From: Mycoplasma sp. Bg1
Lineage (GTDB): Bacteria > Bacillota_I > Bacilli_A > Mycoplasmatales > Hepatoplasmataceae
Direction of reading: 5' to 3'
NCBI GenBank assembly: GCA_001641205.1
Contig: LSMX01000003.1
Span: 120,177 to 184,176, forward strand
DNA: 64,000 nucleotides
In this document: one piece after another, positions 40,959-64,000 of the stretch
How positions within the stretch are numbered: position 1 is the first letter of the stretch
Layout: every line of letters begins with the position of its first letter
Notes under the pieces: generated by a model
Seen by the model: only the letters and a program-made list of their open reading frames with translations
What the model was told of the DNA's origin: nothing
The model's database searches: none
Program-made: the position numbers and the translations under genes

Positions 40959-41918
40959 TTATTTTTTAATTGTAGAAACTGCTTTTAGGGTTACTTCTTT
41001 TAAAGTAGAAACAGATTCAATAAATTGTTTTTTTTCTTTTTCTGAAAGATCTAATTCAAAAGTACGAATAATTCCTTCTTTTCCAATTAAACAAGGAATT
41101 CCTGCATAAGTTCCTTCCATCCCATATTCTCCAGAAAGAAGTGCTCCCGTTGCAAAGACTCTTTTTTCATCTCTTAAAATTGCTCTTGCAATATCAGTAA
41201 GGTTCATTCCAATTCCATAATAGGTTGCTCTTTTACGATCAATAATTTCATAAGCTTTTTTTCAAACAGTTTCATGAACTTTTGCAAGTTTTTCCTCTGT
41301 AAGTCCATATTTATCATATAGTGTTGATAGTTTAACTCCATTTAAAGTTGCAACTGAAAATGTTGAAACTGATGAATCACCATGTTCTCCCATTACATAA
41401 ATTCCAAAATCTCTTGGTGCTGCGTCTTCGATTAATTTAGATAATTCTAATTTTAATCTTGATGTATCAAGTGCACATGATGCTGAAATAACTTTACTTG
41501 GTTCAAATCCTGTAACTTGTTGAAAAACTGTAGTCATCACATCAACAGGATTTGAAGCAACAATTGTCACTCCTTCAAACCCATTTGCTTTAACTTGATC
41601 AGCAATTGATTTCATAATTTTGACATTATCTTCAACCATTGCAAGTCTTGTTTCACCTGGTTTTTGAGGTCTCCCTGCAGTAATTACAAGTAAATCTGCA
41701 TCTTTTACAAGTTCATAACCACCATTTTCAACAATATAATCTGTTGCTGTAGTTCCTCTTCCATCTTCAAGATCAAGTTTTTGACCATAAGCAACTTCTT
41801 CATTAATATCGATAATTCCATAATATTTTGCTAAATTTTGATTTGTTGCTGCATATAAGAATGACATCCCGACAAATCCCGCACCAATAAGCACTACTTT
41901 GTTTGTTGTATTTTTCAT
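40959..41918 (-). CDS. ldh: L-lactate dehydrogenase (canonical specificity loop)
   Basis: VVLIGAGFVGMS (Rossmann fold), loop ITAGRPQKPGETR (Gln102/Arg109 equivalents), LDTSRL, GEHGDS. Two same-frame pieces joined by TGA. Confidence 0.88.
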
Positions 41919-42087
41919 TTTTTCTCCAATAATAATTATATTTCTATTATATTACTAAATAATTAAGGAAATTTAAATATTTTAGATGGTTTGTTTTTTA
42001 TAAAAAAATAAAACAATTAAATAAAATAAATTTAATTTTTTTCTAATATTATTTAAATAAATTATTTAAATAAAGTAAGGGAAAAAC

Positions 42088-42321
42088 ATGAAAACAGAAA
42101 CAGACATAAAAACATTTTATTATTTAGGATTAATCTTTTTATTTATAGGATTATCAATATTTTTTGGAGTATTAGCAGGTTACTGTCATGAAGGAATAAA
42201 ATCTGCAAAGGATAGTTCTTATTATACTGCAACATTAAATCAGCATTTAATTTACTATTCATTTATTCTTTTGATATTTTTGCAATTCTTTTTACAATAT
42301 ATTCATTTAATAATTTTTTAA
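42088..42321 (+). CDS. small 2-TM membrane protein (77 aa), member of the repeated TM-module family
   Basis: ..KTFYYLGLIFLFIGLSIFFGVLAGY...LIYYSFILLIFLQFFLQYIHLIIF. Same layout as the two modules inside 48771..49517. Confidence 0.5.
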   Translation: MKTETDIKTFYYLGLIFLFIGLSIFFGVLAGYCHEGIKSAKDSSYYTATLNQHLIYYSFILLIFLQFFLQYIHLIIF

Positions 42322-42542
42322 ATTGTTTAAACGAAAAGAAAAAATTAAAATATGAAACTAATTACAATCCTATTAATTTTAAAAATACTCAAAATTAATA
42401 AAATAATAGGATTAAATATACTGTTTTAAATTAAAACCCTCAAAACTTTAATTTTTTATTTTATAAATAGCCTCCAACAAGAAAGCACTTTATTTTTAGT
42501 ATAATTATATTATTATATTCACAAAATAAAGGAAAAATAACT

Positions 42543-42977
42543 ATGCCACGAAGAAGAAGGGGTAAACCCATTATGACAACTGCTGTAACTATGAGTGCAA
42601 TGTCAAATAGAAAAACAAATAAAATGCAACAACAGCAAATGCAACAACAACAAACTCAGCAAACTCAACAACAACAAAATTATGCTACAGCACAAGACCC
42701 AATGCAACCTGCAACTCCTGTTCAACCAGAAGTAGTTGCACCAATAAAAGAAGAAGAACAAGCAGATCAAATTAGAACTATTGCTTCTGCAATTTCACTT
42801 TATCGAAAAAAAGGTTTAAGTTTTGCAGAAATCTTTACCAAAGTTGAAGCTTATAATAAAGGTTTTAAAAGTGAAGAAGATTTTAAAAAAGGATATTTAG
42901 ACTTTGTAAATGAAGAAGCAATTACTAATCCTAAATGAGAATCTGTACTTGAATTTGAACTAGAGCACCAAGAATAA
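42543..42977 (+). CDS. Arg/Gln-rich protein with conserved C-terminal domain, paralog A (144 aa)
   Basis: MPRRRRGKPIMTTAVTMSAMSNRKTNKMQQQQMQQQQTQQ.. then IRTIASAISLYRKKGLSFAEIFTKVEAYNKGF..W(TGA)ESVLEFELEHQE. RBS aaaggaaaaa and a tataat box lie upstream. Confidence 0.7.
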
Positions 42978-43017
42978 AATTCTAATTTAAATTTATAAAT
43001 TTGTTTATTATTAAAAT

Positions 43018-43047
43018 AAAAAAATAGGAATTAATTCCTATTTTTTT
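43018..43047. terminator. terminator hairpin (aaaaataggaatt/aattcctattttt family), copy 1
   Basis: Palindrome centred at 43032/43033 and flanked by A-run and T-run, so it could act in both directions (Q-rich gene on plus, ldh-like 2 on minus). Confidence 0.6.
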
Positions 43048-43128
43048 ATTTTCTTTATGTAATTTAAAATTTCCACTTTACAAAAAGCATTAATTCTTAT
43101 ATTAAGACTAATCTTATCTTTTATAATT

Positions 43129-44097
43129 TTAATTCTCTTCCCTAATTATAGAAAATGCTTTTAAGTTTAATTCTTTTAAAATTGAAATAGATTTAATAAA
43201 TTTAGCTTTTTCTTTTTCTGAAAGATCTAATTCGAAAGTTCTAATAATTCCTTCTTTTCCAATTAAACATGGAATTGCTGCATAAGTTCCTGCAATTCCA
43301 TATTCCCCCGAAAGAAGTGCTCCCGTTGCAAAAACTCTTTTTTCATCTCTTAAAACTGAACAAGCAATATCAACTAAAACCATTCCAATTCCATAACTAG
43401 TTAATCCTTTACGATTAAAAATTTCATAAGCTTTTTTTCAAACAGTTTCATGAACTTTAGCAAGTTTTTCTTCTGTAAGTCCATATTCTTCATATAATGT
43501 TGATAACTTAACTCCTTTTAATGTTGCAGCTGAAAATGCTGCAACAGAAGAATCTCCGTGTTCTCCCATTATATAAACATCAAAATCTTTTGGGGCTGCA
43601 TTTTCAATAAGTTTTGAAAGTTCTATTTTAAGTCTTGAAGAATCAAGAACACATGAAGCTGAAATTACTTTATTTGGTTCAATTCCAGTAATATGTTGAT
43701 AAATTATTGAAGCAGCTTCAAGTGGAGCTGAGGCAATAATAGTTATTCCTTTAAATCCGCTTGCTTTAACTTGAACTGCAATTGATTTCATAATTTTTAC
43801 AGTTCCTTCTAATAAATCATGTCTTGTTCCACCTGGTTTTAATGGTCCTCCCCCAGCAGCAATAATAAGTAAATCTGCATCTTTTAGAAGTTCATATCCA
43901 CCATCTTCTACAATATAATCACTTTCAATAGATCCTCTTCCATCTTCAAGATCAAGTTTTTGGCCATGAGCAAATTCACTTTTTAAATCAATAATTCCAT
44001 AATATTTTGCTAAATTTTGGTTTATTGCTGCATATAAAAATGATGTTCCTACATATCCAGCACCAATAACTACTACTTTATTTGTTGTATTTTCCAT
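43129..44097 (-). CDS. LDH-family 2-hydroxyacid dehydrogenase, variant specificity loop (paralog 2)
   Basis: VVVIGAGYVGTS, LDSSRL, GEHGDS, but the loop reads IAAGGGPLKPGGTR. That is one extra residue, Leu in place of Gln102, and Gly in place of the Glu before Thr-Arg. Confidence 0.8.
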
Positions 44098-44228
44098 TTC
44101 TACTCCTATTATAATTATTTTTTTAATCCTTAAAATTAATAAATATAAGACATTCTATGATCTTTATACCATTTTAAAATTTTTAAGTGAACTTTTACCT
44201 CTACTTAGGTTTTATTCCATAAATAACT

Positions 44229-45197
44229 TTAATTCATTTCTTCAATTATAGAAAGTGCTTTTACTTTTAAATCTTTTAAAACCAAAACAGATTTAATAAA
44301 TTGAGTTTTTTCTTTTTCTGAAAGTTCTAATTCAAAAGTACGAATAATACCTTCTTTTCCAATTAAGCAAGGAATTCCAGCATAAGTTCCTGCAATTCCA
44401 TATTCTCCTGAAAGAAGTGCTCCCGTTGCAAACATTCTTTTTTCATCTCTTAAAATTGAACGTGAAATGTCAACTAAAGTCATAGCAATTCCATAACAAG
44501 TTAATCCTTTACGATTAAAAATTTCATAACCTTTTCTTCAAACAGCTTCATGAACTTTAGCAAGTTTTTCTTCTGTAAGTCCATACTCATCATATAATGT
44601 TGAAAGTTTAACTCCTTTTAATGTTGCAACTGAAAAAGCAGAAACTGATGAATCTCCATGTTCTCCCATTACATAAATTCCAAAATCTTTTGGAGCTACA
44701 TTTTCAATAAGTTTTGAAAGTTCTAATTTAAGTCTTGAAGAATCAAGTGCACATGAAGCTGAAATTACTTTATTTGGTTCAAATCCAGTAACATGTTGAT
44801 AAATTGTTGTTGCTATATCAACTGGATTTGAAGCAATAACAGTTACTCCTTTAAAATCATTTGCTTTAACAGAAACTGCAATTGATTTCATAATTTTTGC
44901 GGTATCTTCAAGTAAATCAAGTCTTGTTCCGCCTGGTTTTAATGGCCCACCACCAGCAGCAATTATAAGCAAATCTGCATCTTTTACAAGTTCATAACCA
45001 CCATCTTCTACGATATAATCAGTTCCAATAGATCCTCTTCCATCTTCAAGATCAAGTTTTTGGCCATGAGCCATTTCTCTATTTAAATCAATAATTCCAT
45101 AATTTTTTGCTAAATTTTGGTTTATTGCTGCATATAGAAATGAAGTTCCTACATATCCGGCCCCAATAACTACTACTTTATTTGTTGTATTTTCCAT
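44229..45197 (-). CDS. LDH-family 2-hydroxyacid dehydrogenase, variant specificity loop (paralog 3)
   Basis: Same variant loop IAAGGGPLKPGGTR. Very similar to paralog 2 along its whole length. Confidence 0.8.
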
Positions 45198-47177: not shown

Positions 47178-48407
47178 TTAAATAATTAAATAATCACTAA
47201 ATGCGGTAAAAATTTTAGTATATTTCAACATTAATTGATTATTATTTCCTGTTCCTATTTTCAAACTTAAAAAAAATTTTTTTTCTTTATCATTAATAAA
47301 AAGAGATTTATAAATTTCTTGAAATTGCTGTTTTGAAATTTTTTCAAAATCTAGATATTTAAATAAAATTAATGTTGCCTCTGCCAAAGAAATATTAATT
47401 TTATTATCAAAATTAAAAAAATTCTCATTTTTTGAATTAGAATAAATTCTAAATATTTTAATTCCATCAAAATATTCTTTTAATTTATACATTAGCTTAT
47501 TTAAATCATTAATAATTTGCTCATTTTTTTCAATAGAATTTTTTGATGCTAATTTCATATAATTGTTTATTAAATAAATAATTCTTCCATTATAATCCAA
47601 AATTTTAATAGAAATTTCATTAAAATTATTTCTACTAAGTCTTATTTTTTCATAAAAAGACAAATATCTAAAAATAAGTTCGGTGTTTTTCATTCTTTTA
47701 ACAAAAACAGAATTTAGTGTTAAGTTTTCAAAAACTTTTCACTCTAAATTATCATTAGTAAATTTTTTGATTTTAGAGTTTAAATCACTTCTATAAATTG
47801 CATTACGTAATTCTTGAGTATTTAATTTCATAGATCCTTGGTTTAATCTAGAAAAAATATCAAATTTTAAAGATTCATCAGATCCTTTTCTAATTCTTAT
47901 TGTTTGTAAAACTTGAGTTTTTAAATAATTTTGGACTCCTATATTTAATTCTTCAAATTTTTTGCCATTTAAATTTTCAAATGATTCTAAACCTCTTAAT
48001 TTTCATTCATTATGTAAAAATGTTTGAATGGTTGTTAATCTTTGGACACCATCTATAACGTCAAATTTTGAATTTGTAGTTTCAAATAAATAAACTGGAG
48101 GTATAGTAATATTAATTAAGAGTGATTCAATAAATTTTGCTCCATTTAATATTGATCAAACAAAATTTCTTTGAAATTCTGGACTAATATTTCAATCTTC
48201 ATCATCTAATCTTCTACAAATATCTTGCAATTCAATGTTGGTGGTATCTATTATTAATGATTTAGGTTTTCAACCTTTTTCTTGATTATTAGCTTCATCA
48301 CTATCAAATTCTTCTTCTTTTTCATCATAACCAGAGTTTTTTTCAAAATCATCATTTTCTTTAGTCAAAATTGGTGCAAACTCTAATTCCTTAATTTTAT
48401 TATTCAT
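47178..48407 (-). CDS. DUF262 (ParB/GmrSD N-terminal-like) domain protein, 409 aa
   Basis: ..NISPEFQRNFVW(TGA)SILNGAKFIESLLINITIPPVYLFE..FDVIDGVQRLTTIQTFL (QR..W and DGxQR motifs). Acidic N-terminal extension. No DUF1524/HNH-type C-terminal domain recognised. Confidence 0.7.
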
Positions 48408-50713: not shown

Positions 50714-52099
50714 TTAAAATTTTTGGAAATATTCTAAATCTATTCCGTTTAATTCTAATCGCTTATTAATATAATTCTTAGTTTCTGGTGTTAAAATTGT
50801 TGAAATTAGAGAATGTTCTAATTTTTCTGATTTAATTTGCTTAACAATTTCCCCATATTCATCCTTTTTAATTCAAATATTTCCCTCTTGATCAAAAACT
50901 AATATATTTTTATCAAATAATTTATGAATAGTTGGGCCTAGTAATAAACCATTTTCAGGATCATATTTTTCATCTTTATTACATTTTATAAAATCAACAA
51001 TATGAGAAGCTTCTATTGCATACGAATTTTTCATTCCTTTAATTAAATCATTTTTATTAATAAATTCTTGTTCATTAATTTCAATATATCTTTTAATATC
51101 ATTCAATAAAAGTTGACGATATTGTACTTGTCCTGGTCTACCATTATCATTTTTTATAAAAAATTCTAAAACTTTAGATTGAATTGTTAAAATTTCTACT
51201 TTTCAATCATTTAAATATTTTTCAAATAAAAAATCATTTAATTTATTAAAGATAGTCATTGCTAAATTTAAATCATTTTTAATTAAATTTTTAATTGTTG
51301 TTTGAGTTCCGAAATGTTTTCCAATAGAAGATTTTCCACTTTTATGTGTTTTAAATAATTCTGGAAGAGGAATTTTTTGGTTTTTTTGTTTTCTTAAAAT
51401 TACTACAATATCTAAGCAAACTGGAAAATTGCTATTACATAATTCATATAAAAAGAGTGCATGTAATGAAAAGAAAATATCTCTAATTGAATAACCCTTA
51501 ATATATTTTAGATTAAAATAATTTTTATAATTATTAACAAAATTAGATGCTAAATCAATCTTATCAATAATATAATCATCAATTATTTTTGATTTAAAAA
51601 TTAGATTAAAATAATTACTTGGAGCAAAATCTTTTTGAATTTCCAAATAACCCAAGCTTGCCATAACCTCTATAAATTGTCTTAGAGTTGATTTTGCAAT
51701 TAACTTTTTAAAATTTCTTCTATCATTAAAATAATCTTCTATTTTAAAAATTCACTCTCCCTCTTTTCCAATATAAAGAGCACTAGTTAAATAAGTTAAT
51801 TTTTGATCAACTCTTTTATAAATATTTAGATAATACCGTTTTTCTTTTTTAGTCTTTTTTTGTACTTTTAAAATTGATTCTTTTCATTCAAGAAAAATTT
51901 CTTCTTTTTCTAAATCAAGATTATAAGTTTTTAATAAATAGATAAACAAATTATTTATCCGACATAAATGAGTAAAAAAATCAGTTCCCATTGTTCAAAC
52001 AAATCCTCATTGATCTTTTTTAGTAATATCATCATTCATTTCAACTTGTTTTTGATAGATTGCTTTAATTTTAGTAATTTGATCTTTTGAAAATTCCAT
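50714..52099 (-). CDS. putative type II restriction endonuclease with C-terminal HNH (HNH_2-like) nuclease motif, 461 aa
   Basis: ATG at 52099 lies 1 nt after the methylase stop and is preceded by ggagga. C-terminal ..EASHIVDFIKCNKDEKYDPENGLLLGPTIHKLFDKNILVFD. Pieces 51203 and 50873 share one frame. Confidence 0.65.
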
Positions 52100-52100
52100 C

Positions 52101-53398
52101 TTATTCCTCCAAAGTAGACATATAGTAAAATATCATTTCGATGATATTTACTGCAATTGAATTTCCTGCCTGTTTATAAAGCTTTTCTCTTGCTTGATTA
52201 TCTGTCTTAGCTCGGTATTTTTTAGTAACAAGAAGCATCTCTTTTTTAGCACTTTGATACTGCTTTTCACTAAAACCCATAAGAAGATATGCTTCTCTTG
52301 GGGTAATAAATCTTCAATTAGTATAATCAACTCCATTATTATCAAATCTTTTATTATTAAAAGCAACTGATCCACAATTTGGTAATCTATCCTGTTTTGT
52401 TGTTACTGTTGGAATATGTTTTAAATTAATATCAATGCAAGGAGAAGAATCAATCATTCTTATTCTTGAAGGAGTATTTTTAATTTGTGCTCAAAGCGAT
52501 TCTTCAAAATCTTTATTAGAAAAATCTATTAATTTCTTAATAGGTTTTTTATTTTTTGGTTGATAAATTTTACAAGTATAGATTTTTTTTAAAATAATTT
52601 CAAGATCATCTCTTGTTCCTTTTCAAGAAACTATTTCATTATTAGGATCATAAATAGAAAAAGCATAAACACGGCGTCTTTTTTGGACCATTCCAAAATC
52701 ACTTGAATAGAGCATTCCCCAAATTGTTTTATAACCTAAAAGCTCTAATTGCTCCATCCAAGCATCAAAGTCTGCTCGATGTTGTTTTTGAACTAAATTA
52801 GGAACATTTTCAAGTAGGAGGAATTTTGGTAATAAATTTGGGCGTCTCTCTCTCTCTCTCTCTCTCTCTCTTCTTGAATTGCTTTAAGATTTATTAAAAC
52901 CTTTTCAATTTCAAGAAGTAACCCTGATCTGGTATGGGCTTTTATTCCCTCATTAAAGCCGTGAAAATTACCTGCAGTAGATAAATCAGTACAAGGAAAA
53001 GAATAAGTAAGCAAGTCTACTCCATTGTTATCTTCAATTATTTTTTTTATTCTAGTAGTTGAATCTACTATAGTTCCAATGTTACTAGCAACTTTGAAAG
53101 CTTTATATCAATCAAGTTTTACTTCTTTTTTAATTGTAGAAGTATTTAAAAAAGGTTTTGATCCATCAAGACTAAAAGTATTTTTTTTAATTCAATTATC
53201 AAGTTCATCATCAGTTGGAGTTTTAATCTTACTTCGATAATTTTTATAATGAATTGCAGCATAGGACTGAGCAGCAAAAACATCCCAATCGGATGTTCCT
53301 ATAATTTCATAATCAAGAATGCCTTTACTCTTTAAGTTTTTTAGGGCAGTATTTTGTGCTCCAATTCCACTAAAAGTTTCAATAACTTTAAATTTCAT
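52101..53398 (-). pseudogene. DNA (cytosine-5)-methyltransferase, out of frame at an internal (GA)13 tract (candidate phase-variable gene)
   Basis: 5' frame: MKFKVIETFSGIGAQ (motif I), SFPCTDLS (motif IV). After the repeat, the motifs continue in another frame: RPNLLPKFLLLENVPNLV (VI), QKRRRVY (VIII), ITPREAYLLMGF, GNSIAV (X). Total length is 1298 nt, which is not a multiple of 3. Confidence 0.85.
52845..52870 (-). repeat. (GA)13 dinucleotide tract inside the methyltransferase ORF
   Basis: Thirteen tc units on the plus strand, counted directly. 12 or 15 units would restore a single 431/433-aa frame. Confidence 0.95.
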
Positions 53399-53528
53399 AT
53401 AAAAAAATTATATACAGAGGCAAAACTAAAACTGCTGTGAAAAAAATAATATAATGATTTAATAATATAGAAATTCAATTTTTAGAAATATTGATAATAA
53501 ACCTTTTACCACATAAATTGTGTTTATC

Positions 53529-60170: not shown

Positions 60171-60200
60171 AAAAAAAGTAGAAATATTTCTACTTTTTTT
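60171..60200 (+). terminator. rho-independent terminator after surface gene 3
   Basis: aaaaagtagaaat atttctactttttttt, paralogous to the hairpin at 54753..54782. Confidence 0.6.
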
Positions 60201-60201
60201 T

Positions 60202-60355
60202 ATTCAACTTTAAAGAATATTGTTAGTTGGAGTTTTAAGCTTATTTCAATAATTATTATAATAAATTGTAATACAGGGTTGAGTAGCAAAAACATCCTAG
60301 TTGGATATTCAATAATTTCGCAATCAAGAACGGCTTTGTTTTTTAAGTTTTTTAG
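60202..60355 (-). pseudogene. second decayed fragment of the methyltransferase 5' region
   Basis: ..agttggagttttaagcttatttcaataatt..gagtagcaaaaacatcctagttgga..caatcaagaacggctttgttttttaagttttttag aligns with 53190..53345. No start codon. Confidence 0.7.
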
Positions 60356-60459: not shown

Positions 60460-61218
60460 TTAATTAAAAATTTCAAAATAATTAATTTCATTATTTTTTA
60501 TTCTATAAAAAATCTCTTTTTCATTTTGTGAAATTGTTGGCAAAAATAAATGATAAGCATCAATAATAATTATGTTAAAAGTTTTATCATATATATCATT
60601 TGAATTAAAATTAATATCATTTGTTTCATCTAAATAATTAAGTTCATTAGTCATTAATATAATTCTCATTGAAGAAAAAATATCATAAATATTATTTTTA
60701 GTTAAATTATATTTTTTATATAAATATGAAAAATCTTGATTAAAAATTTTATAATTAAATCCTATTTTATATATATTATTTCTAAAACATTCTTCATCAG
60801 AAGTCTTATTTTTATTTTTATAATTTTTAAAATGGTTTTGTTCTAATATTTGAAGTGCTCTATAGGAGTTTCTGGAATGACAATTATATTTTTCTATTTT
60901 TCCTTTATATAAATGTTCTTCAAATAACAAATTATTTTTATATAAAAAAATAATTAAATTTTTGCAATTAATTAATAAATTAAAATATTCAATAGTCAAA
61001 AAATTAGAAAAATAATGTTTTTCTAATATAATAGATTTTAAATTATAATCATTTTCTAAAGTTAATTTATAACCAGATTCTTTTAAACTTTTTTTTAAAT
61101 GTAAACTATCTTCTTTTTCATAATGAAAATTTTCATCTTCATTAGTAAAATCCTTTTCATCTAAAGAAAAAGAAAATTTTTCTAATATATCTTCTATTGA
61201 ATCTACATCATTTTTCAT
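60460..61218 (-). CDS. hypothetical Asn/Tyr/Lys-rich protein (252 aa), candidate partner (toxin?) of the upstream Panacea-domain gene
   Basis: Intact ORF without TGA. It starts 14 nt downstream of the stop of 61233..61805. No domain recognised. Confidence 0.5.
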   Translation of the reverse strand: MKNDVDSIEDILEKFSFSLDEKDFTNEDENFHYEKEDSLHLKKSLKESGYKLTLENDYNLKSIILEKHYFSNFLTIEYFNLLINCKNLIIFLYKNNLLFEEHLYKGKIEKYNCHSRNSYRALQILEQNHFKNYKNKNKTSDEECFRNNIYKIGFNYKIFNQDFSYLYKKYNLTKNNIYDIFSSMRIILMTNELNYLDETNDINFNSNDIYDKTFNIIIIDAYHLFLPTISQNEKEIFYRIKNNEINYFEIFN

Positions 61219-61232
61219 TAAATTATTTAATT

Positions 61233-61805
61233 TTATTCATTATATTGCTTATATATTAAATATGAATCCATTTCTGAGCCAGGACCTATATCATCAACTG
61301 CATTTTTTCATGAAATATCAGAATGAGATTTATTAACAAGAATAAAATCTTCGATAAGAAAAATATTTTTTAATTGCAAGTTTATAAATATTTTTATTCT
61401 TTCTATTTGATTGATATTTAAATTTAATTTATCATTAAATTTAAGATCTATTTTATAAGATTTTCTAGAAAAATTTCTATTTTTCTGGTTTTCATAAATC
61501 TCTTCATCAACTGGTCCATATTTTCAAGCAAAAAAAGTAATATCAAATAATTCAATAATATTTTTTTTAGAATTATTTGATATTACTTCCTTTGAAATTT
61601 TTGCTTCTTCTCCATTTAATAATATTTGTTGATATTTAAATCACAAAGCATACAAAAAATATAATGATTTTTGTAATTTAATTTTTGAAATAGAATTATT
61701 ATTTATTTCATCTAATTTATTATTCGTTGATTCTTTATATAAATTAATAATATATTCAGCAATTTCAACATTAGAATTTAACAATATTTTTTTACTATTT
61801 TCCAT
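61233..61805 (-). CDS. Panacea/DUF4065 (SocA/GepA-like) domain protein, putative antitoxin (190 aa)
   Basis: Not in the track because of TGA. ..ISKIKLQKSLYFLYALW(TGA)FKY.. and ..FDITFFAW(TGA)KYGPVDEEIY.. match the KLQKLLYF / F.AW.yGPV...vY hallmarks of DUF4065. Confidence 0.6.
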
Positions 61806-62221
61806 TTTTTATTCCAAAATATAAAAGTATATATAAATATTTAACATCTTCTATATTATTTTAATACATAAATATAATATCACATTTGTAAACATTTATA
61901 GATTTTTGCAAACAATTTAAGTTAATATTTCAAATTTTTTTGTTAATAATGAATAAGAAAGCAAATATTCATTATTCCTAAAAATAAAAATCTATTTCCA
62001 TCATCTTTCATAAAATTTCTATTTTTTTTATCATTTACTACTTGATCAATAAATTCTTTTTTAGTATTTTGCATTGAAGATATTCCTTTATTTAAATTTA
62101 ACAAGTCATTATTATATCCATTTTTTTCAAGATTATTTAAATAAATTACATTAAGATTTTTAATTTTATTTGTCTATACCAATTACTTGTTAAATCTTAC
62201 CCTGTCAAACATAAATGAAAA

Positions 62222-64000
62222 TTAATATTTATCTCCTCAATATTTTTTAACTATTTGTGATATTTCAGTTGATCTTTTGAGAATATTATCAATATTAAAA
62301 TCTATAACATCTAATTTAGTTAAAACTCCATTTATTCCATCAAGAGTTAATGATTTAGCTTCATTATTTATAGTATTACAATATTCTCTAATATTATCTT
62401 TATATAGTAAACTTCTTTTAGAATTTTTAGCAACAAAATAATTTCCAATCATATCTATATATTCAGGATATTCTGATTTTATTTCATCATATGAAATTTC
62501 ATCTGTTTCATTATTTAATTGATTAATAATTTCTTCTGTATAATTTGGCGGCAATAATTGAAAAGCATTTAATAAACTATTATTATTGCTAAAATTGTTT
62601 TCAATTGTAGACAATATTGTTTTACACATATTGCTACTATCTATTGGCCGTTTTGCAATAAAATTAATAAATGTATTTTCAGGAATCATTTGAAATTGTA
62701 AATCTATATCATTTACAAGAAAATTTCATAAATCTTTTGGAATTTTGATTTCATTAGTATTAATTGCTTTTATAACTTTATATACATATTTTCCAAGTGA
62801 AGCTAATCTATCTCCAGAAATACTTCTTCTAATATAATGAATTTCCATAATTTTAAGCATTTCACTAAAATCATTATCATTATTAATTTTTAATAATTTT
62901 GAATCAAATTGATCAAAAGTTCCATTGATTAAAATTAAGTTAGAGATAATTGGCAAAATAATTGAATTTGACATAATTATTTTAGCATCATTATAAAATG
63001 GTTTTAAAACATCAATTTTTTCAAAATTATGAATATTACTTGCAAGAATAAATACTTCTAAATATTTTCCTAAATTACTAATAAAATTTTCAAAATTTTC
63101 AAATGAAGTAATTTTATTATTTACATCTACATAATTTTTTACAAAATAATGTTTAAATCTTTTATAAATTGTTAAATCATTTCTTCATTCATATATATTA
63201 TTAGAAACATTTAAATAAAATACAAAAAAATCATCTTGAGCACGTTCAATAGTAGATTTTGTATAATAATTTTCAAATTTAACTTGAATATGATTTTCAA
63301 ATAAATTAATTATTTTCAAATCATTTTCTCTATAAAGATTTTCATCAATAGAGCTTAATAAAAAATTTTTAATTTTGTCATAATTTGTTAACTGTTTAGA
63401 TTTTGAATTTAAATTTTCAAAAATTTCAAATTCATTAATATCCTTTTCAAACCATATAATACCCACTTCAAGTTTTGATAAGGCACAAAGTAAATTGATA
63501 ATATAATCAGAAGCATCAGCGTTTTCATTTATTTTTGAGAAAATGTAATTTTTCATATAATTATAATTTTGATAAACTGAACTTTCCTTATATTGTCTAT
63601 TTGTATATATAGAATCATTTAGTAGAACTTTTTCATCACCTAATAAATAATATTTCAAAAGATTTTGTGTTCTTTCATTATTAATTCTATTTTTCAAAAA
63701 ATTAATTAACAAAGAATTTTCAGTATTAAATAATTCATTTAATAGTTTACTAGATGTAATTTTGTTTTTAAGACAAACATCATAAATTGCTCTTAACAAT
63801 AAAAGAATTGTTGTTATTCTTTGTTGACCGTCCATAATGGAAAAAGAATTTTCTTTTTCTGAATTTCTTCCAAAACTTAGAACTCCGAAAAAATATGAAA
63901 AAATTGTTTTTTCATTATTTATAATTCCTTCTAAATCAAAAAGTAATTCTTCAATATTGGATCTTGATCAATCATAATTTCTTTGATATGGTGGTACAAA
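62222..64000 (-). CDS. large DUF262-family protein, 5' end beyond the window (at least 592 aa)
   Basis: ..VPPYQRNYDW(TGA)SRSNIEELLFDL.. and SIMDGQQRITTILLL (DGQQR). Pieces 63185, 62726 and 62237 share one frame. I translated the 62975..63184 gap codon by codon and it is open. TAA at 62222. Confidence 0.7.

Follow-up and report, generated by a model that had tools for sequence, protein, structure and literature searches.

The stretch of DNA considered here, referred to as the window, comprises 64,000 nucleotides (nt) of Mycoplasma sp. Bg1, an isopod-gut mollicute whose source assembly consists of 785 kb in five contigs. Towards its end, the window carries two adjacent minus-strand genes, panA and a panT-like partner, which as judged from their sequences form a pair of PanA, a protein of the Panacea type, and a member of predicted toxin cluster T16. 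The pair is a very divergent copy of a kind that has been catalogued before and is not a new system. Its parts and the sequence immediately upstream are as follows (aa, amino acids; ORF, open reading frame):

panA, 61233..61805, minus strand: 190 aa, an ORF under genetic code 4 with three in-frame TGA codons read as tryptophan; stand-alone Panacea (DUF4065/SocA-like) antitoxin-type gene
panT-like partner, 60460..61218, minus strand: 252 aa under genetic code 4, without in-frame TGA; very probably a divergent member of predicted toxin cluster T16
Spacer from the panA stop to the panT start, 61219..61232, minus strand: 14 nt, taken from the sequence
Upstream non-coding region, 61806..61918, minus strand: presumed promoter region of the pair (putative)

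An earlier note on this DNA had reported three TGA codons within the frame of panA and a partner 14 nt downstream, and both statements were confirmed. The pair (60460-61805) has a G+C content of 16%, compared with 26% for the whole window, and this is the lowest value in its neighbourhood. Both genes are real; the probabilities of two frames of this length being open by chance are approximately 8e-12 and 4e-9, as computed at the local G+C content of 16%.

The Panacea protein

When taken alone, the 190-aa protein is a borderline member of the Panacea family. Its comparison with Pfam PF13274 (SocA_Panacea, formerly DUF4065) gives 18.7 bits (E 0.0034), under the gathering threshold of 25.7, and it matches the NCBIfam model SocA_antitoxin with an E value of 2.3e-9, far under the equivalog cut-off of that model. 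A word-indexed search of 5.8 billion proteins returned one relative only, which carries PF13274, and three further copies were obtained from related genomes. Alignment of these five sequences shows 32 invariant columns, all of which are kept in the window protein. Among them are those of KLQKSLYFLYALW and FFAWKYGPVDEEIY, the two motifs that had been named as hallmarks of the family, and the core motifs (I/L)K(L/M)QK(S/T)LYF and AW.YGPV are likewise present in invariant columns. PF13274 is matched by four of the five members of this subfamily (best E 8e-8). Against a hidden Markov model (HMM) of 60 relatives, from which all mollicutes were excluded, the window PanA scores 101.7 bits (E 2e-33), with the best of 1000 shuffled sequences reaching 8.1 bits. 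Close relatives of the sequences in this HMM include Orf24 of Lactococcus prophage bIL312, which has been listed as a PanA. The assignment to Panacea (DUF4065) proposed from the letters alone is thus upheld; the single sequence does not attain the Pfam threshold, but the profile comparison is clearly passed at the level of the subfamily, where membership of the Panacea/SocA-like PanA proteins is secure.

By scans with the five-sequence alignment, the subfamily was located at 38 loci in genomes and at 32 in viral contigs, and a search with the PanA profile found no solved relative among PDB sequences. PanA possesses no extra N-terminal, neutralising or DNA-binding domain and is therefore classed as a stand-alone Panacea. 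The protein is homologous to SocA of the SocAB system of Caulobacter crescentus (type VI toxin-antitoxin; NCBIfam NF047745), as shown by the NCBIfam match above. SocA is a ClpXP adaptor for SocB, and SocB blocks the sliding clamp of DNA polymerase. The window pair differs from this system in that its PanA attains 37 bits against an equivalog cut-off of 190, its partner is unrelated to SocB and no sign of adaptor-mediated degradation was seen.

The partner and predicted toxin cluster T16

In direct searches the 252-aa partner is an orphan. It has no match in Pfam, NCBIfam, PADLOC or PHROGs, in agreement with the earlier note, whose author had recognised no domain in it; no relative was found among 61 related genomes or among the 5.8 billion proteins covered by word-indexed search, and a jackhmmer search started from this protein alone recruited none. 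The first clue to its affiliation was a C-terminal motif encoded downstream of panA, which reads IIIIDAYHLF in the window, LLLFDPHHLF in Mycoplasma sp. Bg2 (same genus), IFAIDLYHLF in Candidatus Hepatoplasma vulgare (same family) and VVLLDPYHLV in a metagenomic phage contig. To collect the partner family, the ORF immediately following PanA was taken from every fetched locus, which gave 63 unique proteins. One BLAST cluster takes in 52 of them, and an iterated HMM converges on 56, so that the neighbourhood survey bears out the conservation of the partner beside Panacea. The typical partner has a length of approximately 190 aa, lies immediately downstream of panA and occurs in Clostridia, Bacilli, Erysipelotrichia, mollicutes and phage contigs as well as in Brochothrix phage BL3 and Lactococcus prophage bIL312. 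It overlaps panA in 50 of the 56 family loci (median spacing -20 nt), while the mollicute loci have gaps of 9-14 nt. The phage examples were reached solely through PanA, as a tblastn search with two members of the partner family against 50,697 phage records returned nothing. The two-gene arrangement characteristic of PanAT systems is thereby found for this pair, with a gap of 14 nt, pairing in approximately 55 loci of Bacillota, mollicutes and phages, and flanking genes that vary from locus to locus.

In the 52-sequence alignment of the family, N63, D167 and H170 are invariant and S53, F61, R110 and L171 nearly so (N63, R110, D167 and H170 numbered on the representative from locus L075). The window partner keeps them all, as S62, F70, N72, R120, D220, H223 and L224, together with Y222, which is also a signature residue. 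An HMM built from Firmicutes and phage sequences only, with no mollicute sequence, recovers the partner of the metagenomic phage contig (E 2e-13) and that of H. vulgare (E 1e-8) but misses the window protein, and its membership was therefore tested in a non-circular manner. Against a leave-one-out HMM of the family it scores 3.9 bits after a composition correction of 52 bits (E 0.0024 for one test). This exceeds the scores of all 2000 shuffled sequences (maximum -6.9), and three family motifs (LKSIILEKHYFSNFL, R..IL and IIIIDAYHLFLP) are matched collinearly. Furthermore, BLASTP comparison with the syntenic Bg2 partner gives an E value of 0.001 over 214 collinear residues.

Several observations count against this placement. 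Apart from being missed by the mollicute-free HMM, the window protein has the weakest HMM score in the family, and when it was used as the query of an exhaustive phmmer search of 1.8 billion representatives, nothing but the query was returned. Its isoelectric point (pI, 5.58) is the lowest of any member, and it carries insertions, in a family that is basic (median pI 9.07, with 45 of 52 members above 8); this low pI is due to an acidic N-terminal extension. Its own statistical tie to the family is thus weak. Taken together with its position behind PanA and the retained signature residues, the protein is nevertheless very probably a member of the T16 family, as an extreme and insertion-bearing one.

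The link to cluster T16 comes from annotated phages reached via PanA, in which the overlapping pair is gp24/gp25 of Brochothrix phage BL3 and orf24/orf25 of prophage bIL312. The BL3 genes sit between those for endolysin and integrase, in what is a lysin-integrase cargo slot of temperate phages. The family HMM matches BL3 gp25 (E 4.6e-12) and bIL312 Orf25 (E 2.4e-12). In Dataset S1 of Kurata et al. 2022 (PMC8832971), the bIL312 proteins NP_076824.1/NP_076825.1 appear among the predicted PanA/PanT pairs, under toxin cluster T16 (pT17). This cluster has twelve members there, all in antitoxin-first order (A|T), without a CDD domain and marked 'notest', and its sole HHpred entry ('50S ribosomal subunit, 51.5%') is noise (PMC8832971). 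No later paper characterising T16 was found in the literature. As the family HMM matches a protein already catalogued as T16, the window partner is not a new family. The suggestion of a new toxin partner is accordingly abandoned, the partner falling in the family that stands behind this PanA in approximately 55 other loci, whereas the rest of the proposal for a candidate PanA/PanT pair, namely the Panacea gene, its PanAT arrangement with the partner and the island setting, stands. In this way an apparent orphan in an AT-rich genome that uses genetic code 4 could be assigned to a catalogued family through its better-conserved neighbour, and the range of T16 now takes in mollicutes associated with isopods as well as many uncultured Bacillota phages.

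The window pair resembles the T16 pairs of bIL312 and BL3 in that a stand-alone Panacea comes first, the partner lies directly downstream and has no known domain, and the two form a mobile or accessory module. The window partner also shares the collinear motifs S..F(T/S)N, R..I(I/L) and (L/I)IDxYHL. It differs in length (252 aa versus approximately 190), in being acidic rather than basic and in the 14-nt gap that replaces the overlap. Furthermore, the window copy uses genetic code 4, is too divergent for single-sequence searches and is chromosomal, located in a restriction island of a symbiont rather than in the cargo slot of a prophage.

The PanA clade also contains other downstream partners. 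Three Companilactobacillus loci (L032, L033 and L042) carry a separate cluster of 190-223 aa, of which that at L042 matches the T16 HMM only at E 4e-4, while Psittacicella hinzii (L019) has a partner of 317 aa and Thomasclavelia (L026) one of 365 aa. These look like cases of partner swapping. The same PanA subfamily was seen near the right end of the Streptococcus satellite phages Javan9, Javan22, Javan24, Javan27 and Javan462.

Proposed mechanism and predicted fold

The reading preferred here, to which a probability of about 0.7 is given, is that the pair is a PanA-PanT module of cluster T16 in which PanA restrains an enzyme-type toxin. panA and panT would be read as one transcript in antitoxin-first order. 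Validated stand-alone Panacea proteins neutralise their toxins directly (PMC10440598), and by analogy the window PanA most likely binds its partner and holds it inactive. The partner would be a soluble intracellular enzyme-type toxin with a compact alpha/beta fold built around a fixed polar set of Ser, Asn, Arg and Asp-x-Tyr-His; its target is most likely nucleic acid or translation, and it would be released on loss or triggering of PanA, for example by phage infection. Direct neutralisation, toxicity, this choice of target and a role in defence or in stabilisation of the element that carries the pair are all inferred. What is observed is the adjacency of PanA and T16 across phyla and phages, together with the signature residues, which are retained.

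The validated stand-alone PanATs (Kurata et al. 2022; Ernits et al. 2023, PMC10440598) agree with the window pair in the lack of an N-terminal domain on PanA, in the antitoxin-first operon and in the direct neutralisation that is expected. Their toxins are membrane peptides, MazF-like RNases, toxSAS enzymes, Fic/Doc proteins and a nucleotide cyclase, and T16 is unlike all of these in sequence and predicted fold. A membrane-depolarising PanT (as in clusters T3, T12 and similar) was rejected for the partner, as it has no predicted transmembrane segment; the maximum of the Kyte-Doolittle mean over 19 residues is 1.33 for the window partner, with a family median of 0.84.

A number of points weigh against a working toxin-antitoxin operon. 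The best promoter-like hexamers upstream of panA (61883..61855) agree with the consensus at only 9 of 12 positions, and such sites in 61806..61918 are not more frequent than expected from shuffled sequence. Scanning of this AT-rich DNA found no terminator at the locus, and the operator scan near panA returned weak AT-rich inverted repeats only, none of them above chance. The invariant T16 residues are putative active-site residues, put forward on the basis of their conservation. Among 25 PanTs that Kurata et al. (PMC8832971) assayed in E. coli, eight were not toxic.

The last of these points also favours a different explanation, in which these two conserved genes serve as an accessory module of phages or of defence rather than as a classical toxin-antitoxin system. 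T16 would then not inhibit growth when alone, acting for example as a phage-only effector or as a regulator, and Panacea would serve as its sensor or partner. A sensor role for Panacea is favoured by the NetFlax authors, and the prophage copies do occupy the lysin-integrase cargo slot. This explanation is nonetheless considered improbable. The antitoxin-first, overlapping layout of two genes is the standard layout of type II systems, and H. vulgare carries a second copy just after dnaN (L006:1468-2260, at approximately 3.0-3.8 kb of the genome) in which panA is intact but only a decayed stub of 78 codons is left of the partner; this stub still has the T16 motif 'KYMFTN' and is then interrupted by stop codons. 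This copy looks like an orphan antitoxin beside a decayed toxin gene, which is what would be expected of a harmful partner, and retention of panA beside it therefore lends circumstantial support to the toxin reading.

A typical T16 member was modelled with AlphaFold from the 52-sequence alignment, which gave a confident mixed alpha/beta fold (pLDDT, the predicted local distance difference test, 85.2; pTM, the predicted template modelling score, 0.80). The model of the window partner, for which a 4-sequence alignment was used, is poor (pLDDT 47), and Foldseek with it returned nothing. Foldseek comparison of the confident family model with the PDB identified no solved structure at E <=0.001 (best 0.52), and one clear relative was found in the viral library, D7RWK8, of 208 aa (E 5.7e-6). 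From its length and accession series this is presumably BL3 gp25. When the 4- and 52-sequence partner alignments were searched as profiles against PDB sequences, only noise was obtained, and across the 52 family members the only match was phrog_28810, of unknown function, in four members.

One possibility for the mechanism, prompted by the pattern 'LR(I/V)I..hhhhDxYHLF', is that T16 partners are endoribonucleases of the RelE/ParE superfamily with an N-terminal extension. The family is basic, as this reading would have it, and toxins of the HigB, ParE and RelE type (6af4, 5jaa, 8c24 and 7etr) are among the sub-threshold Foldseek matches of the T16 model. These matches have a probability of <=0.08 and TM-scores of <=0.31, and none reaches E 0.001 despite the confidence of the model. 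Comparison of T16 by hhalign, as a whole and as N-terminal and C-terminal halves, with ParE and Gp49 alignments gave a probability of 0.1%, no better than with MazF, although this test has low power (E 0.04 for the positive control); the published HHpred result on a T16 member was noise only. A RelE/ParE-like fold is therefore not supported and is regarded as quite unlikely.

Within the preferred reading of a PanA-restrained toxin, it may be speculated that the T16 toxin combines a fold and a mode of catalysis that are new to toxin-antitoxin systems, being a soluble enzyme built around the invariant Asn, Arg and Asp-x-Tyr-His, in a module that is kept, with its alleles exchanged or diversified, as phage defence in mollicutes with genomes of <0.8 Mb. 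This is possible, though on balance doubtful. With a 52-sequence alignment, a confident fold model that lacks a solved relative and a few candidate catalytic residues now at hand, the family can be tested directly in laboratory strains.

Island context and divergence from Mycoplasma sp. Bg2

The pair lies in a variable stretch rich in restriction genes, and its context resembles a defence island, as had been remarked in the earlier note. Upstream of panA lies a DUF262/GmrSD_N gene (62222..64000+), a second GmrSD_N gene is found at 47178..48407, and an HNH gene (50714..52099) stands beside a C5-methylase. Two further features adjoin the pair:

Relic of the 5' end of a decayed C5-methyltransferase gene, 60191..60355, minus strand: downstream flank, marking the ancestral panT-methylase junction; 78% identity to the 5' end of the intact Bg2 methylase gene
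Upstream flank, 61919..62223, minus strand: homologous to the 3' coding end of the Bg2 gene L084:7182..8999; adjoins the DUF262 gene of the window

The gene order of Bg2 is that of the window, with DUF262 genes, panA, panT and an intact C5-methylase gene directly after panT. In the window the working methylase copy (approximately 53150..53450) is some 7 kb away and 97% identical to that of Bg2, compared with 78% for the relic that follows panT. It follows that insertion or duplication placed the surface-protein cassette between panT and the restriction-modification operon. On the other side of the pair, 61919..62223 matches the 3' end of the Bg2 gene L084:7182..8999 with 81% identity over 290 nt (blastn, E 3e-72), and the DUF262 gene of the window therefore seems shortened relative to its Bg2 counterpart. 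This flank includes an ORF of 53 aa (61943..62104). Bg2 also has approximately 4.9 kb of extra genes between DUF262 and panA (L084:2808-7090), encoding proteins of 348 aa and 91 aa, a second DUF262 protein of 602 aa and one of 294 aa of unknown family. They are absent from the window, so the content of the island differs between the sister species, and no relic of the 294-aa gene was found in the window spacer.

The cassette is far more divergent between the two species than a housekeeping gene. The lactate dehydrogenase (LDH) genes of the window and Bg2 have 89% protein identity and 75% identity at third codon positions, while for panA the corresponding values are 39-43% and 58%. For panT, protein identity is approximately 24%, and third-position identity is not detectable at the DNA level. 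As the synonymous-type sites of the cassette have also diverged beyond the housekeeping baseline, an old pair of alleles or the replacement by a divergent cassette fits better than fast evolution in place, and the window and Bg2 probably carry old or exchanged alleles and not recently diverged orthologues. The PanA tree joins the window and Bg2 proteins as sisters (99/94), on branches approximately eight times the median length, for which long-branch attraction is possible. The distribution of the module is patchy: it was found in two of seven genomes of the genus, in one of seven other genomes of the family and in none of approximately 390 other genomes of the order. Extreme divergence of a cassette at a syntenic slot of sister symbionts makes this a small but clean case of allele turnover in the defence island of a reduced genome.

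The same divergence can be read as decay, the window copy then being what is left of a formerly active cassette that has lost its function in a genome undergoing reduction. The very long branches in the PanA tree and the gene relics on both flanks would agree with this, as would the lowest G+C content of the neighbourhood, the weakest family HMM score, the outlying pI and the insertions in the partner. Both frames are however intact against odds of approximately 1e-11 and 4e-9, the family-invariant residues of the partner and the 32 invariant columns of PanA are all kept, and the match of PanA to its distant relatives still amounts to 101.7 bits. Decay is thus held to be very unlikely, and an intact PanA-T16 module, subject to allele exchange or of old allelic origin, remains the favoured interpretation of the window copy.

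Elsewhere in the window, three tandem or near-tandem paralogues of lactate/malate dehydrogenase (319, 322 and 322 aa) were observed at 40959-45197, in a genome of less than 0.8 Mb.
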